A DNA stretch of 10,170 nucleotides from a virus (lineage: Duplodnaviria > Heunggongvirae > Uroviricota > Caudoviricetes). Numbering within the stretch: position 1 is the first letter of the stretch; each line of letters opens with the position of its first letter. The stretch lies in the IMG/VR virus record IMGVR_UViG_2703718835_000004; one strand, written 5' to 3'. The notes beneath the pieces are model-generated. The model was not told where the DNA came from and made no database searches. It saw only the letters and a list, made by a program, of their open reading frames with translations. A program made the position numbers and the translations under genes. Below are positions 599 through 10,170 of the stretch, in pieces.

Positions 599-949
599 AC
601 TTCAATCTACAAAATTGAGCACATCACTGTTGGCAAGCCAGGATCTGAACAATACCGTCATGCTTTCGAGCTTGCCGATCAGCTTGGTTTAAAACACCCG
701 GATTGCATCGAGCATGTATTTCCGACCTATGCTGATGAGCAATGTACTCATGTCCTTACCGAAGAGGATTTTTTCAGCACTGAAGAACGAGAAGGCGTTG
801 ATCGCTGCATTGGTGTGATTTGCTCTTCAGTGAGTTATGAGTTATTCCCTAATGTCCATGAAAATGGTGGTATTGGATACCAATTCCTGTACGAAGGCGA
901 TGAGCTTAAATGTTATGAACATGGTCTTCTTATCGAAAGCGTAGAATAA
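599..949 (+). pseudogene. 3' remnant (~116 codons) of a gene truncated by the IS903-family insertion; function unknown
   Basis: Frame 2 is open from the IS boundary to a TAA at 947-949 and contains no ATG; the first internal GTG would give only ~45 aa. The frame continues back into the IS inverted repeat, as expected if the IS was inserted into a pre-existing gene. Translation (...HITVGKPGSEQYRHAFELADQLGLKHPDCIEHVFPTYADEQCTHVLTEEDFF...GGIGYQFLYEGDELKCYEHGLLIESVE) has protein-like composition, and a hairpin terminator follows. Confidence 0.45.
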
Positions 950-962
950 TACCCTTCCTTCC

Positions 963-986
963 AACCGGCTATGTTGGCCGGTTTTT
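963..986 (+). terminator. Putative intrinsic terminator of the truncated upstream gene
   Basis: Stem aaccggc (963-969) pairs with gccggtt (977-983) around a 7-nt loop, followed by a T run (982-986), 14 bp after the TAA at 947-949. Confidence 0.4.
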
Positions 987-1010
987 CACTTATCCACATT
1001 ATCCACTGGG

Positions 1011-1068
1011 TAGATCCAATAATTAGGTCCATACAGATCCCAATTAGATCCATATAGATCCCTGATCG
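1011..1068. repeat. Cluster of five GATC (Dam) sites in heptamer-like repeats (AGATCCA/AGATCCC)
   Basis: GATC at 1013-1016, 1036-1039, 1047-1050, 1057-1060 and 1064-1067. P1 oriR is known to need Dam methylation of such a cluster. Confidence 0.75.
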
Positions 1069-1106
1069 TTGCAGGCCGCGCCACGTCTGGCTTAGAAGTG
1101 TATCGC

Positions 1107-1189
1107 GATGTGTGCTGGAGGGAAAACGATGTGTGCTGGAGGGATAAAAATGTGTGCTGGCGGGATATAGGATGTGTGCTGACGGGAAA
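1107..1189 (+). repeat. incC-type iterons: four direct 19-bp RepA-binding repeats
   Basis: GATGTGTGCTGGAGGGAAA (1107-1125), GATGTGTGCTGGAGGGATA (1128-1146), AATGTGTGCTGGCGGGATA (1149-1167) and GATGTGTGCTGACGGGAAA (1171-1189), spaced 21-22 bp apart (two helical turns). Confidence 0.9.
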
Positions 1190-1245
1190 GCCTGGGTAGT
1201 TATCACCACTTATAAAAACTATCCACATAATTCGGAAAAAGTAAT

Positions 1246-2106
1246 ATGAATCAATCATTTATCTCCGATATTCTTTACGCAGACATTGAAAGTAAGGCAA
1301 AAGAACTAACAGTTAATTCAAACAACACTGTGCAGCCTGTAGCGTTGATGCGCTTGGGGGTATTCGTTCCGAAGCCATCAAAGAGCAAAGGAGAAAGTAA
1401 AGAGATTGATGCCACCAAAGCGTTTTCCCAGCTGGAGATAGCTAAAGCCGAGGGTTACGATGATATTAAAATCACCGGTCCTCGACTCGATATGGATACT
1501 GATTTCAAAACGTGGATCGGTGTCATCTACGCGTTCAGCAAATACGGCTTGTCTTCAAACACCATCCAGTTATCGTTTCAGGAGTTCGCTAAAGCCTGTG
1601 GTTTCCCCTCAAAACGTCTGGATGCGAAACTGCGTTTAACCATTCATGAATCACTTGGACGCTTGCGTAACAAGGGTATCGCTTTTAAGCGCGGAAAAGA
1701 TGCTAAAGGCGGCTATCAGACTGGTCTGCTGAAGGTCGGGCGTTTTGATGCTGACCTTGATCTGATAGAGCTGGAGGCCGATTCGAAGCTCTGGGAGCTG
1801 TTCCAGCTTGATTATCGCGTTCTGTTGCAACACCACGCCTTGCGTGCCCTTCCGAAGAAAGAAGCTGCACAAGCCATTTACACTTTCATCGAAAGCCTTC
1901 CGCAGAACCCGTTGCCGCTATCGTTCGCGCGAATCCGTGAGCGCCTGGCTTTGCAGTCAGCTGTTGGCGAGCAAAACCGTATCATTAAGAAAGCGATAGA
2001 ACAGCTTAAAACAATTGGCTATCTCGACTGTTCAATTGAGAAGAAAGGCCGGGAAAGTTTTGTAATCGTCCATTCTCGCAATCCAAAGCTGAAACTTCCC
2101 GAATAA
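1246..2106 (+). CDS. repA: RepA plasmid replication initiator (P1-type iteron-binding initiator), 286 aa
   Basis: 286-aa ORF flanked on both sides by its own iterons. The length and the N-terminal sequence (MNQSFISDILYADIESKAKELT...) match my recollection of phage P1 RepA. The stop codon overlaps the first downstream iteron. Confidence 0.92.
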   Translation: MNQSFISDILYADIESKAKELTVNSNNTVQPVALMRLGVFVPKPSKSKGESKEIDATKAFSQLEIAKAEGYDDIKITGPRLDMDTDFKTWIGVIYAFSKYGLSSNTIQLSFQEFAKACGFPSKRLDAKLRLTIHESLGRLRNKGIAFKRGKDAKGGYQTGLLKVGRFDADLDLIELEADSKLWELFQLDYRVLLQHHALRALPKKEAAQAIYTFIESLPQNPLPLSFARIRERLALQSAVGEQNRIIKKAIEQLKTIGYLDCSIEKKGRESFVIVHSRNPKLKLPE

Positions 2107-2236
2107 GTGTGTGCTGGAGGGCAGCTGCATTTGAAAAATGTGCGCTGCCGGGAATGCCTGCCCATTTTCCTGTTTTTGGTGTGCGCTGGAGGGTTGCGCC
2201 ACGCAGTTTGCCCAGACATTCCCTCCAGCACACATC
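2105..2236. repeat. incA-type iteron cluster downstream of repA (three direct, one inverted)
   Basis: Iteron cores at 2106-2121 (AGTGTGTGCTGGAGGG), 2138-2154 (ATGTGCGCTGCCGGGAA, degenerate) and 2178-2193 (GGTGTGCGCTGGAGGG), plus an inverted perfect copy at 2221-2236 (ccctccagcacacatc, reverse complement of GATGTGTGCTGGAGGG). Confidence 0.8.
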
Positions 2237-2258
2237 TAATAGCCTCATCGCCATTTCT

Positions 2259-2322
2259 TTACGTGCAATAATTTACGCACGAATCAAAATAAGTTGCACG
2301 TAGCAGAATCAAACGTACAATT
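2259..2322 (+). promoter_or_regulatory. parAB promoter with overlapping inverted-repeat operator
   Basis: Candidate sigma70 promoter with -35 TTGCAC (2294-2299) and -10 TACAAT (2316-2321), 16-bp spacer. A perfect 9-bp inverted repeat, TACGTGCAA (2260-2268) and TTGCACGTA (2294-2302), overlaps the -35. Type Ia ParA proteins are known to autorepress through such operators. Confidence 0.5.
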
Positions 2323-2345
2323 CACTCATACGAAATGATAAGGAG

Positions 2346-3557
2346 ATGATGATGAAACGCGATTACGGCGGTGTCGGCACCATAGCTCTTCGTGCAAGCG
2401 CATTACTTAAGGCCATGAGTCAGGATATTGAAGATCAGCGCAAAGAGTTCAATCAGACCGAGTATTATCAGACGTTCACTCGTAACGCTGTGGCAAAGTT
2501 GCCGAAGCTGAGCCGCCGCATTGTGGAGCAGGCCATCAAAGAGATGGAAGATGATGGGTACCAGTTCAACAAGAAACAGGTCGGTAACGTTGAACAGTAC
2601 GCGCTGACCATCCAGAACGTCATTGATATCTATGCCCACCGTAAGATCCCAAAATATCGCGACATTCACAAATCGCCTTACGTTATTTTTGTCGTAAACC
2701 TGAAGGGTGGCGTATCCAAAACGGTTTCCACAGTCACGTTGGCGCACGCTCTGCGTGTGCATCAGGATTTACTGCGTCACGATCTGCGCATTCTGGTAAT
2801 TGACCTTGACCCTCAGGCATCCAGCACAATGTTCCTCGACCATACTCACAGTATTGGTTCCATCCTGGAAACCGCCGCGCAGGCGATGCTGAACGACTTG
2901 GACGCGGAGACGCTACGCAAAGAGGTGATTCGTCCGACCATTGTTCCTGGCGTAGACGTGATTCCAGCCTCTATCGACGATGGCTTTGTTGCCAGCCAAT
3001 GGAAAGAGCTGGTTGAAGAGCATCTTCCCGGACAAAATCAGTACGAAATCCTTCGACGCAATATCATTGATCGTGTTGCTGATGATTATGACTTTATCTT
3101 TATTGATACCGGTCCACACCTGGATCCGTTCCTGCTCAACGGTCTGGCGGCCAGCGATTTGCTGCTTACCCCTACCCCACCAGCCCAGGTTGACTTCCAC
3201 TCAACACTGAAATATCTCACCCGTCTGCCAGAAATGCTGGAGCAACTGGAGGAGGAAGGCGTAGAACCGCGTTTAAGCGCCAGCATTGGTTTTATGTCGA
3301 AGATGACCGGCAAGCGCGATCACGAGACATCACACAGCCTTGCGCGTGAGGTTTACGCCAGCAACATTCTGGACTCTTCTCTGCCTCGTCTGGATGGATT
3401 TGAGCGATGCGGCGAGTCTTTCGACACCGTAATCAGTGCCAACCCGCAATCGTATCCAGGCAGTGCAGAGGCGCTGAAGAAGGCACGAACCGAGGCCGAG
3501 CGTTTCACTAAGGCTGTGTTTGATCGAATTGAGTTTGTTAGGGGTGAGGCGGCATGA
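2346..3557 (+). CDS. parA: ParA partition ATPase, type Ia (P1/P7 family), with N-terminal regulatory extension
   Basis: Deviant Walker A motif KGGVSKT (residues 120-126, nt 2703-2723) after a ~100-aa N-terminal extension; overall clearly similar to, but not identical with, P1 ParA as I recall it. Three consecutive ATGs at 2346-2354 follow an AGGAG at 2341-2345, so the real start is probably the second or third ATG (2349 or 2352). Confidence 0.92.
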   Translation: MMMKRDYGGVGTIALRASALLKAMSQDIEDQRKEFNQTEYYQTFTRNAVAKLPKLSRRIVEQAIKEMEDDGYQFNKKQVGNVEQYALTIQNVIDIYAHRKIPKYRDIHKSPYVIFVVNLKGGVSKTVSTVTLAHALRVHQDLLRHDLRILVIDLDPQASSTMFLDHTHSIGSILETAAQAMLNDLDAETLRKEVIRPTIVPGVDVIPASIDDGFVASQWKELVEEHLPGQNQYEILRRNIIDRVADDYDFIFIDTGPHLDPFLLNGLAASDLLLTPTPPAQVDFHSTLKYLTRLPEMLEQLEEEGVEPRLSASIGFMSKMTGKRDHETSHSLAREVYASNILDSSLPRLDGFERCGESFDTVISANPQSYPGSAEALKKARTEAERFTKAVFDRIEFVRGEAA

Positions 3558-4519
3558 AAAAAATAGTTTCCCGTGGACGAGTGCTGGGCAAGAATAGCTC
3601 CGAGTTTGCTCGCATGCTTGAAGGCAGTGAAGGCACCAAAACCTTTACCCTAAAATCTGGCCGCCAGGCTAAATTTTTGCTTACCGTTGTGCTGAGTGGT
3701 GAGATTGAGTCGCGCACGTTCGTTGACCCGGCAGTTAACGGCCGCGATCAGTCTCTGCTCACCCCTGAGTCGGTAAGCGATATTTCCCGCACCATTAAAT
3801 TGCAACAGTTCTTCCCGGCTATCGGTCGTATGGTTGGGGAGCGCATTGAGGTATTGGACGGATCACGTCGCCGCGCTGCGTGTATCTTCAATGAAACGAA
3901 ATTTGAGATTCTGGTGACGAAAGATGAGATCAGCCTGGCGGATGCACGCCAGCTGGCCATTGATATCCAGACAGCCCGCGAACACACCCTGCGCGAACTG
4001 GGTAAACGCTTCGAGGTTATGTATGGTAAGAGCATGACCAAAGAAGAGATCGCCCGCGCTGAGAACATTTCAAAGGCTAAAGTTACGCGCGCGTTCCAGG
4101 CGGCAGCGGTGCCGGATGAGATGATTGCTGTCTTCCCTGTTGCCAGCGATCTCGCCCTGCCAGATTACCAGTTACTGCTCCAGATCTCCGAGGATGCCAA
4201 CGCTAAAAGCGTGCCTATTGAAGAGCTGGTTGATACGGTGCGCGAACGAATTGCAGAGACTGAGGGCGCGAAAGAGGATAAAGCGAAGATACTGGCTATC
4301 TTCAAAGCGGAAAGCAAAAGCCTGAAGCCCGCGCCGGTTAAATCTGTGGTGGTTGAGAAGCTGCGAGACTTCTCTGACCGTCGCCAATATGCTCGAAAGA
4401 AGTCCGATCCGAAAAAACGGGTTGTCGCCTACGAGTTCTCCAGACTCCCGTCTGAAGTGCAAACTGAAATTGACGAAGCAATAAAAAAAATCATTGGGAA
4501 AATGTCTGCTGGGGAATAA
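3554..4519 (+). CDS. parB: ParB centromere-binding partition protein (P1/P7 family), 321 aa
   Basis: Start codon overlaps the parA stop (ATGA at 3554-3557), implying translational coupling. Sits between parA and a parS-like site; conserved stretches (GRDQSLLTP, ILDGSRRRAA, AKVTRAFQAA) resemble P1 ParB. Confidence 0.9.
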   Translation: MKKIVSRGRVLGKNSSEFARMLEGSEGTKTFTLKSGRQAKFLLTVVLSGEIESRTFVDPAVNGRDQSLLTPESVSDISRTIKLQQFFPAIGRMVGERIEVLDGSRRRAACIFNETKFEILVTKDEISLADARQLAIDIQTAREHTLRELGKRFEVMYGKSMTKEEIARAENISKAKVTRAFQAAAVPDEMIAVFPVASDLALPDYQLLLQISEDANAKSVPIEELVDTVRERIAETEGAKEDKAKILAIFKAESKSLKPAPVKSVVVEKLRDFSDRRQYARKKSDPKKRVVAYEFSRLPSEVQTEIDEAIKKIIGKMSAGE

Positions 4520-4783: not shown

Positions 4784-6490
4784 TTGAGTAACTTACGCGA
4801 ATACCAGAATCGTATTGCAGATATCGCAAAACGCTCTAAAGCTGTGCTTGGCTGGGCAAGCACTGCGCAGTTCGGTACTGATAACCAATTCATTAAAGAT
4901 GATGCCGCGCGTGCCGCATCTATCCTTGAAGCTGCACGTAAAGACCCGGTTTTTGCGGGTATCTCTGATAATGCCACCGCTCAAATCGCTACAGCGTGGG
5001 CAAGTGCACTGGCTGACTACGCCGCAGCACATAAATCTATGCCGCGTCCGGAAATTCTGGCCTCCTGCCACCAGACGCTGGAAAACTGCCTGATTGAGTC
5101 CACCCGCAATAGCATGGATGCCACTAATAAAGCGATGCTGGAATCCGTCGCAGCAGAGATGATGAGCGTTTCTGACGGTGTTATGCGTCTGCCTTTATTC
5201 CTCGCGATGATCCTGCCTGTTCAGTTGGGGGCAGCTACCGCTGATGCGTGTACCTTCATTCCGGTTACGCGTGACCAGTCCGACATCTATGAAGTCTTTA
5301 ACGTGGCAGGTTCATCTTTTGGTTCTTATGCTGCTGGTGATGTTCTGGACATGCAATCCGTCGGTGTGTACAGCCAGTTACGTCGCCGCTATGTGCTGGT
5401 GGCAAGCTCCGATGGCACCAGCAAAACCGCAACCTTCAAGATGGAAGACTTCGAAGGCCAGAATGTACCAATCCGAAAAGGTCGCACTAACATCTACGTT
5501 AACCGTATTAAGTCTGTTGTTGATAACGGTTCCGGCAGCCTACTTCACTCGTTTACTAATGCTGCTGGTGAGCAAATCACTGTTACCTGCTCTCTGAACT
5601 ACAACATTGGTCAGATTGCCCTGTCGTTCTCCAAAGCGCCGGATAAAGGCACTGAGATCGCAATTGAGACGGAAATCAATATTGAAGCCGCTCCTGAGCT
5701 GATCCCGCTGATCAACCACGAAATGAAGAAATACACCCTGTTCCCAAGTCAGTTCGTTATCGCGGCTGAGCACACGGTACAGGCGGCGTATGAAGCACAG
5801 CGTGAATTTGGTCTGGACCTGGGTTCCCTACAGTTCCGCACCCTGAAGGAATACCTGTCTCATGAACAGGATATGCTGCGTCTTCGCATCATGATCTGGC
5901 GTACTCTTGCGACCGACACCTTTGACATCGCTCTGCCGGTTAACCAGTCCTTTGATGTATGGGCAACCATCATTCGTGGCAAATTCCAGACTGTATATCG
6001 CGACATTATTGAGCGCGTTAAATCTTCTGGTGCGATGGGGATGTTTGCTGGTGCTGATGCAGCATCTTTCTTCAAACAGTTGCCGAAGGATTTCTTCCAG
6101 CCAGCCGAAGACTATATCCAGACTCCGTATGTTCACTACATCGGTACCCTGTTCGGTAACGTGAAAGTGTACGAAGTACCTGCTGGTATTTGTAAGAACT
6201 TAACGACAGAGAACATTCAGTTCAGCTCGATGGATGTGCTGTGCTACGTCCGTGATGAAAATCCGGGTAAAGCAGGCTTCGTGACTGGTGATGCTGTCCC
6301 GGCCATCCCGTTCCAGCATCCGACCACTCCGGCGCTGGTCAACCGTACCACGCTGTGGGGTTCGGCTATCAACGATATGCACCCACGCAACGGCGCTGAT
6401 TACTTCACTCGTGTAACGCTGACAATGGCCAAAAAAGGCGGGCTTAACTTTATAAGCGGCGACACGATTGATGCCGGTGACTCTGAGTAA
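4784..6490 (+). CDS. Putative major head (capsid) protein, ~568 aa; probable TTG start
   Basis: Long ORF (track 4763-6490) with no in-frame ATG for ~90 codons. The TTG at 4784 lies 6 nt after a strong AAGGAAG (4771-4777). It is the first gene of an operon immediately after parS and before the sheath gene; size (~62 kDa) and position match the P1 major head gene next to par, from memory. Function is inferred from synteny and size only. Confidence 0.5.
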   Translation: MSNLREYQNRIADIAKRSKAVLGWASTAQFGTDNQFIKDDAARAASILEAARKDPVFAGISDNATAQIATAWASALADYAAAHKSMPRPEILASCHQTLENCLIESTRNSMDATNKAMLESVAAEMMSVSDGVMRLPLFLAMILPVQLGAATADACTFIPVTRDQSDIYEVFNVAGSSFGSYAAGDVLDMQSVGVYSQLRRRYVLVASSDGTSKTATFKMEDFEGQNVPIRKGRTNIYVNRIKSVVDNGSGSLLHSFTNAAGEQITVTCSLNYNIGQIALSFSKAPDKGTEIAIETEINIEAAPELIPLINHEMKKYTLFPSQFVIAAEHTVQAAYEAQREFGLDLGSLQFRTLKEYLSHEQDMLRLRIMIWRTLATDTFDIALPVNQSFDVWATIIRGKFQTVYRDIIERVKSSGAMGMFAGADAASFFKQLPKDFFQPAEDYIQTPYVHYIGTLFGNVKVYEVPAGICKNLTTENIQFSSMDVLCYVRDENPGKAGFVTGDAVPAIPFQHPTTPALVNRTTLWGSAINDMHPRNGADYFTRVTLTMAKKGGLNFISGDTIDAGDSE

Positions 6491-8999: not shown

Positions 9000-9581
9000 A
9001 TGGCTCCTATAGCTTATGGGGTTTACAGCCAGGCTGACGGTGTATCGCCATATCTGAAAGTTACTTTAACGAACTCTCAGTACCAGGTTACCGGATATAT
9101 CAGCCAGGGAGCGGCAATGAACATGGCCCAGAATTGGGAAGCGCCGTTTACCGGTATGTCCATGGGATCTGTTTCTGGTGCTCTGGGTGGTTTTGTGCAA
9201 GTAGGTACTGAAACAACGTCGGTTGCCCGTTGGAATAGCTTAATGGTTTGGGAAGGGGGGACTCCGCCGACGTTCACGCTGCCTGTAACTTTCATTGCTT
9301 TGAACAATCCATTCATTGAAGTTTCAGGCGCTATCGCCGCGTTGACAGCCATGATTAGCCCGGAACTAAAAGCGGCCAATGTTGGTGGTCGAATCCCGGA
9401 GCGCGTGACGCTAAACATTGGTCGCCGGATCAACATCACCGATGTCGCCATCCAGGACTTAAGTTTTGATCTCGATGCGCCAAGGGACAGTAATGGATAT
9501 TTCCTGAAAAACACCGTCAACCTCCAGTTGACCGGTTCTTCGATATATAACAGCTCCGATATTGTTCGGGCGTTCCAGTAA
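9000..9581 (+). CDS. Hypothetical phage structural protein, 193 aa (tail tube or other tail component is possible)
   Basis: Co-directional ORF in the sheath operon with protein-like composition; size (~21 kDa) fits a tail-tube-class protein, but no motif was recognised. Confidence 0.6.
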   Translation: MAPIAYGVYSQADGVSPYLKVTLTNSQYQVTGYISQGAAMNMAQNWEAPFTGMSMGSVSGALGGFVQVGTETTSVARWNSLMVWEGGTPPTFTLPVTFIALNNPFIEVSGAIAALTAMISPELKAANVGGRIPERVTLNIGRRINITDVAIQDLSFDLDAPRDSNGYFLKNTVNLQLTGSSIYNSSDIVRAFQ

Positions 9582-10148: not shown

Positions 10149-10170
10149 GGAGTGACCCGTCCTGAATAGC

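Follow-up and report, generated by a model that had tools for sequence, protein, structure and literature searches.

Is the incA locus of this P1-like plasmid prophage truly shortened, how would it have lost its iterons, and what would the loss mean for copy number? These questions arise from a 10,170-nt stretch of viral DNA (IMG/VR record IMGVR_UViG_2703718835_000004), hereafter the window, which covers the region for plasmid maintenance in a P1/P7-like (IncY) plasmid prophage. In P1, RepA monomers bound to five origin iterons initiate replication, while the nine iterons of incA sequester RepA by titration and pair with those of the origin (handcuffing); the more iterons, the lower the copy number. 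Iterons outside the origin are described as lowering copy number by titration and handcuffing (PMC12361487), and in the iteron handcuffing model fragments with fewer iterons handcuff poorly (PMC3401445). Our literature search on incA, mini-P1 and handcuffing, with the classic P1 papers outside its range, returned only general statements, and the papers found on P1-like phage-plasmids do not discuss iteron number. The parts of the window that frame the locus are the following.

1-598, no strand given: terminal part of an IS903B-type insertion sequence (1-420 match the annotated IS903B transposase gene of CP100983 at 98.3%)
to 949: upfA-like ORF, truncated by the IS903B-type end
about 990-1189: oriR
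990-1075, + strand: left part of oriR, with two tandem DnaA boxes (990-1007) and five GATC sites in A+T-rich repeats
1246-2106, + strand: repA, 286 aa (ORF list and translation), encoding a protein identical to P1 and P7 RepA
2240-2345, + strand: P7-type par promoter/operator region, identical in intact relatives and aligning with P7, not with P1
2346-3557, + strand: parA of the P7/IncY type (ORF list and annotation of relatives)
3554-4519: parB (ORF list and annotation of relatives)

The IS903B-type element lies within the upfA-like ORF upstream of oriR and is context outside the control locus; it ends in CGATTTATTCAACAAAGCC (579-598), which we take to be the IS903 terminal inverted repeat. 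The DnaA boxes and GATC sites of oriR were taken from the annotation of K02380 and AF503408, and 990-1075 is identical in the alignment to intact relatives and nearly so to P1 and P7. Downstream, the first ATG of parA is at 2346, with the annotation of relatives placing the start 6 nt later. The partition module is of the P7 type: in a three-way alignment the par promoter and parA follow P7, and P1 is unalignable downstream of iteron copy 1. P1 structural genes follow further downstream of parB.

To count the incA iterons, we built a position weight matrix (PWM) from the 14 annotated P7 iterons and scanned the spacer between repA and parA (2100-2345), which gave four sites.

2106-2124, + strand: incA iteron copy 9, 21.3 bits, corresponding to the annotated P7 copy 9 and overlapping the last base of the repA stop codon
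2137-2155, + strand: incA iteron copy 8, 20.9 bits (P7 annotation, alignment)
2178-2196, + strand: incA iteron copy 7, 21.3 bits (P7 annotation, alignment)
2218-2236, - strand: hybrid of copy 6 and copy 1, the sole remaining inverted iteron, 25.9 bits, with copy-6 context on its left and copy-1 context on its right

These four matches to the 19-bp P1-consensus iteron (20.9-25.9 bits) compare with a mean best score of 1.2 bits over 500 shuffles of the spacer (95th percentile 7.2, maximum 12.3). Beyond them the PWM found no degenerate iteron in 2100-2345; as the next best score was -2.9 bits, below the shuffle 95th percentile, none has been missed that could raise the count towards nine. An earlier note on this DNA, made from the letters alone, had given the spacer as 239 bp with three direct iterons and one inverted; both figures hold (with the end of repA at 2106 and the first ATG of parA at 2346). 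The same PWM recovers five origin and nine incA iterons in P1, P7 and nine close relatives. The reference array spans 285 bp and consists of three direct and six inverted iterons, whereas that of the window spans 131 bp with three direct iterons and one inverted, so that the references do not share its count or its span. The note had further proposed that incA is shortened, and P7, P1 and the closest intact relatives indeed all align with it across an exact 154-bp gap. The array begins at the repA stop codon and ends at 2236, upstream of the par operon, in the layout of P7, and its cognate RepA is of the P1 type. The window array is a truncated allele of a P1/P7-type incA, and its homology is not in doubt.

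The anatomy of the gap points to how it arose. Relative to LT883139 and AP027746, the window shows a single gap of exactly 154 bp between flanks that are 100% identical, and the same gap is seen against P7 and P1. Lost with it are iteron copies 5, 4, 3 and 2 and one of copies 6 and 1, while the par promoter region is unaffected. The junction is a single short repeat.

2220-2239, + strand: deletion junction, the 20-bp TCCCTCCAGCACACATCTAA, present once in the window and twice, 154 bp apart, in intact relatives

In LT883139 and AP027746 copies 6 and 1 are both embedded in TCCCTCCAGCACACATCTAA. No other exact repeat in incA is as long as these 20 bp, and the remaining pairs in the same orientation share 11 bp at most; in P7 they share 18 bp and in P1 17 bp, at the same distance of 154 bp. 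Because its end points lie in this longest repeat, the deletion is what recombination or replication slippage between copies 6 and 1, with their shared 20-bp direct repeat, would be expected to produce.

Next to the contracted incA, repA has the same nucleotide sequence as in the intact relatives CP110759 and LT883139, and a compensating mutation in the initiator is therefore absent. Salmonella phage SJ1 (OQ595196.1; L005/L030) is likewise 100% identical to the window in repA and at the start of parA. We dropped it as evidence on incA: the record, although labelled a complete genome, consists of coding sequences concatenated head to tail and lacks intergenic DNA.

A second contraction, which had gone unnoticed in the earlier reading, lies in the origin.

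1107-1189, + strand: origin (incC) iteron array of four iterons starting at 1107, 1128, 1149 and 1171, corresponding to copies 14, 13, 11 and 10 (27.0-29.9 bits)
1144-1149, + strand: position of the repA promoter -35 box, ATAAAA in the window and TTGCTA in P1 (mapped from K02380 by alignment)
1168-1173, + strand: repA promoter -10 hexamer TAGGAT, retained (mapped from K02380 by alignment)

In the alignment with five-iteron relatives, copy 12 and its spacer are missing through a 21-bp deletion, and it is this deletion that places ATAAAA where TTGCTA stood at the -35 position. For the promoter we relied on the annotation of K02380 (-35 TTGCTA at 904-909, -10 TAGGAT at 928-933); a promoter consensus scan was set aside after it missed even the known repA promoter in an intact relative. 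A P1-type oriR has five phased iterons at 21-22 bp spacing together with the repA promoter. That of the window has four and a replaced -35 box, and it keeps the DnaA boxes, the GATC repeats and the -10 box; a loss of 21 bp would preserve the helical phase of the parts that remain. A probe across the copy 13-to-11 junction (1138-1171) matched a single plasmid, the Escherichia coli plasmid p92944-TEM, among 72,556 PLSDB plasmids and had no match in 5,426 E. coli complete genomes. The origin loss would be a second slippage event in the same lineage, removing iteron 12 and the annotated repA -35 box.

We then asked how widespread the short incA is. A probe for intact incA covered at least 80% of its length in 365 of 374 matching PLSDB records, and one 31-bp unit was missing in 3 of 60 sampled PLSDB records. 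For the window allele we used a 34-nt junction probe (2213-2246) designed to be unable to seed on intact incA. It matched p92944-TEM (NZ_MG860488.1) as the one hit in PLSDB and one metagenome contig, ERZ1106969 NODE_2427 (L008), with no match in IMG/VR or among GTDB species representatives and none among the 362 E. coli complete genomes that have this region. A low-coverage PLSDB match to the intact-incA probe led to pMB9366_2 (CP103510), which has the same architecture of three direct and one inverted iteron with a different sequence, and a probe for this second type of junction, taken from CP103510, found four plasmids in E. coli complete genomes (4 of 362 with the region). These four, pMB9366_2 (CP103510), p3347558_2 (CP071075), pSW070910 and pSW071620, come from E. 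coli of the USA, Switzerland and the Galapagos, measure 63-207 kb and are referred to below as lineage B. Across PLSDB and the E. coli complete genomes, a four-iteron incA thus occurs in ~1% of P1-like replicons, and it is inherited rather than a one-off. The iteron counts of these replicons and of two further relatives are as follows.

Window: origin 4, incA 4
p92944-TEM: origin 8 (copy 14 in five tandem copies, copy 12 missing), incA 4
Metagenome contig ERZ1106969 NODE_2427: origin 5, incA 4
Lineage B (four plasmids): origin 5, incA 4
AP027746: origin 4 (independent 13/12 hybrid, 21-bp deletion), incA 9
pCP53-92k: incA 8

p92944-TEM is an E. coli multiresistance plasmid of types IncFIA and IncY, on which a literature search (p92944-TEM, MG860488) yielded nothing relevant. 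It carries the same incA junction and the same copy-12 deletion as the window. Since the two differ at only 11 positions over about 9.1 kb and share both deletions, they belong to one lineage; they also share an IS3-family insertion at the right end of the window. Unlike the window, p92944-TEM has iteron 14 five times (8 + 4 iterons) and an intact upfA-like ORF where the window has IS903, an ORF that is also intact (393 nt) in most relatives. The five copies of iteron 14 are identical 21-bp tandem units (L007 9683-9850; NZ_MG860488.1 about 109682-109849), and the expansion is either a real slippage product or an assembly miscount.

The same concern extends to the deletion itself, which a collapse of repeats during assembly could have falsely produced. 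The iterons are short, an assembler might in theory miscount the tandem array of 21-bp units in the origin, and p92944-TEM differs from the window at exactly that place. The incA junction, however, is seen in several assemblies that different laboratories made independently, and between flanks of more than one haplotype, and normal k-mers or long reads should resolve a repeat of only 20 bp around a unique deleted segment. We therefore consider an artefact very improbable.

Several side observations concern the flanks of these replicons. The last 18 nt of the window (10153-10170) are the start of the IS3-family element, at the same site as in p92944-TEM and with a 3-bp duplication (GAG). This site adjoins a known IS186/IS421 target at which both p92944-TEM and lineage B carry an insertion. 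We rejected the shared IS421 insertion as proof of common ancestry of the two lineages, as the position is already reported as a target of IS186/IS421, and an unrelated P1-like plasmid has an identical 10-bp duplication there (PMC6906374). At 9174-9533, about 45 closely packed SNPs separate the window from CP081715, CP110759 and ERZ1106969 NODE_2427; this block is absent relative to pNDM-M121 or p92944-TEM and has the appearance of a patch introduced into a P1 structural gene by recombination. The 568-aa P1 protein encoded at 4784-6490 is ubiquitous among P1-like elements, and its homologue in lineage B contains an internal stop and carries a pseudogene annotation (L032 and L033, 14573-16279), which fits a loss of phage function in these plasmids.

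We also asked whether the short incA arose once or several times. Lineage B resembles the window in its three direct and one inverted incA iterons, the 6/1 hybrid and an equal repA-parA spacing, and its par side is nearly identical to that of the window (7 differences in 2240-4250). Its rep side, of a P1/P7-like haplotype, diverges from that of the window by about 3%, encodes a RepA with S4Y and has the normal five origin iterons. Over 900-4250 (compared with L031), the divergence changes from about 3% on the left to 0.35% on the right, and the switch falls exactly at the incA junction. This pattern is consistent with two different P1-like plasmids having recombined unequally, or with an exchange that took place later at the hybrid iteron, and suggests that the incA iterons are where crossovers join the rep module of one P1-like plasmid to the par module of another. 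The sequences of P1 and P7 likewise part immediately after iteron copy 1. ERZ1106969 NODE_2427, in turn, lies 5 SNPs from the intact CP110759 and 77 from the window. The 6/1 deletion is thus present on at least two rep-side haplotypes. Because IncY-type relatives show almost no variation in the replicon region and the ancestry of lineage B switches at the junction itself, recurrent deletion and transfer by recombination are inseparable here; judged from these haplotypes, strictly independent deletions are probable but unproven.

Iteron arrays of P1-like plasmids have recombined elsewhere too. The ET220 plasmid (NZ_CP100983.1; L009 1387-1530; also CP100937, from ET650) carries a dead replicon remnant in which repA and iterons 10, 9 and 8 were lost through recombination of origin iteron 11 with incA iteron 7. 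It has an additional 5/1 hybrid iteron, and its IS903B occupies the same upstream site as in the window, in the opposite orientation. Iteron-iteron recombination is evidently recurrent in this plasmid family.

The carriers of the short allele have a second replicon in common. In all five complete plasmids with a four-iteron incA, we found a full-length, complete-looking RepFIA repE flanked by F-type iterons (L031 8581-9696; L010 2412-3629; L029 27846-28961). What we take to be the F iteron consensus is matched exactly at one site in each of these plasmids. Lineage B carries a dual-replicon module, with the RepFIA repE 1.5-2.7 kb upstream of the P1-type oriR. Among seven typed relatives that keep eight or nine incA iterons, not one was IncFIA. 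The four-iteron carriers have degraded P1 backbones with IS elements and resistance genes, a heat-resistance island or capsule genes. Since lineage B shares its module by descent, the association represents two evolutionary events at most and is only suggestive.

Such a second replicon raises the possibility that the P1 replicon has become redundant, that its iteron arrays are drifting by slippage and that the short incA is not under selection. Consistent with this, both lineages with the 6/1 deletion carry the full-length repE with F-type iterons, the backbones are degraded and rich in IS elements and resistance genes, and the window origin lacks one iteron and the annotated -35 box. The fivefold iteron 14 of p92944-TEM, the loss of repA from the ET220 plasmid and the independent 21-bp origin deletion in AP027746 (IncFIB and IncY) point in the same direction. 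On the other hand, repA and parAB are intact, as are the DnaA boxes and the iterons still present; repA is that of functional relatives, and lineage B keeps its 5 + 4 iterons unchanged in four plasmids from three countries and thus looks maintained. Decay of this kind is possible, if on the unlikely side.

Our preferred reading, to which we assign a probability of about 0.6, is that the locus is a genuine P1/P7-type (IncY) incA with a clean 154-bp deletion that should weaken negative control and raise the copy-number set-point, unless the P1 origin is idle. As RepA is identical to that of P1, the four remaining iterons should still bind it and pair with the origin iterons, at less than half the normal load. 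Weaker negative control, a higher set-point and weaker incA-mediated incompatibility would follow, unless another origin does the work. By analogy with the P1 model, a raised set-point is the most likely consequence, and the earlier note's expectation that such a variant might run at a different copy number or rely on other control appears reasonable on the same grounds. The loss of origin iteron 12 and of the -35 box would act in the opposite direction, through less RepA or a weaker origin, and may partly offset the incA contraction. The two effects oppose each other, and the net copy number of the window replicon is not predictable.

The offset could even be the point: the loss of iteron 12 and the -35 box would cut RepA supply and origin strength, the incA contraction would cut RepA demand and handcuffing, and copy number would stay low and near normal, with the iteron 14 expansion retuning p92944-TEM. 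In favour of this, the two deletions co-occur only in the window and p92944-TEM, the incA deletion is found alone with a normal origin in ERZ1106969 NODE_2427 and lineage B, and the 8 + 4 = 12 iterons of p92944-TEM come near the normal 14. Set against this, the argument is purely inferential, the two near-identical members stand for a single evolutionary event, and the data also fit neutral drift. We regard such balancing as doubtful.

P1 is the textbook case of iteron copy control, and knowledge of it comes almost entirely from engineered deletions. A natural, inherited four-iteron incA therefore offers a ready-made test of iteron load against copy number in wild plasmids. In the relatives it always lies beside RepFIA on resistance or virulence plasmids; it could show whether an increase in copy number accompanies the conversion of a phage-plasmid into a cargo plasmid, and could alter the dosage of linked resistance genes as well as IncY incompatibility. 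Were copy number unchanged, the allele would be a tolerated scar. At its most ambitious, iteron number might serve as a natural copy-number dial: the 20-bp identity of copies 6 and 1 would be a hot spot that recurrently yields a "relaxed" four-iteron state, favoured, or no more than tolerated, after the conversion of a P1 prophage into a cargo plasmid that has a second replicon, and re-balanced by slippage in the origin (loss of iteron 12 and the -35 box, expansion of iteron 14). This generalization is speculative, and we think it improbable as a whole.

Compared with known systems, the locus is nothing new in kind: it is an allele of a textbook element, shortened by a natural deletion. The incA of P1 and P7 (IncY; K02380, AF503408) agrees with that of the window in position, 19-bp iteron family, RepA protein and oriR core, and in the order and orientation of copies 9, 8 and 7, followed by an inverted copy; P7 also shares the type of par operon downstream. 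The window differs from both in an incA without copies 5 to 2 and one of 6 and 1, and in a four-iteron origin without the annotated -35 box. What is added here is the 20-bp hot-spot mechanism, the companion deletion of origin iteron and -35 box, the rarity of ~1%, the inheritance in two lineages and the co-occurrence with RepFIA. Another close parallel is with mini-P1 plasmids from which incA iterons were deleted in the laboratory, in part or completely, and which, in the work of Chattoraj and colleagues (1984), of Pal, Mason and Chattoraj (1986), and of Abeles and colleagues (1995), reportedly replicate at raised copy number; complete deletion of incA is said to raise it about eight-fold. Like these constructs, the window has lost incA iterons with oriR and repA otherwise present. 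Unlike them, its allele is natural, derives from iteron-iteron recombination, is inherited in wild plasmids and is joined with the loss of an origin iteron.
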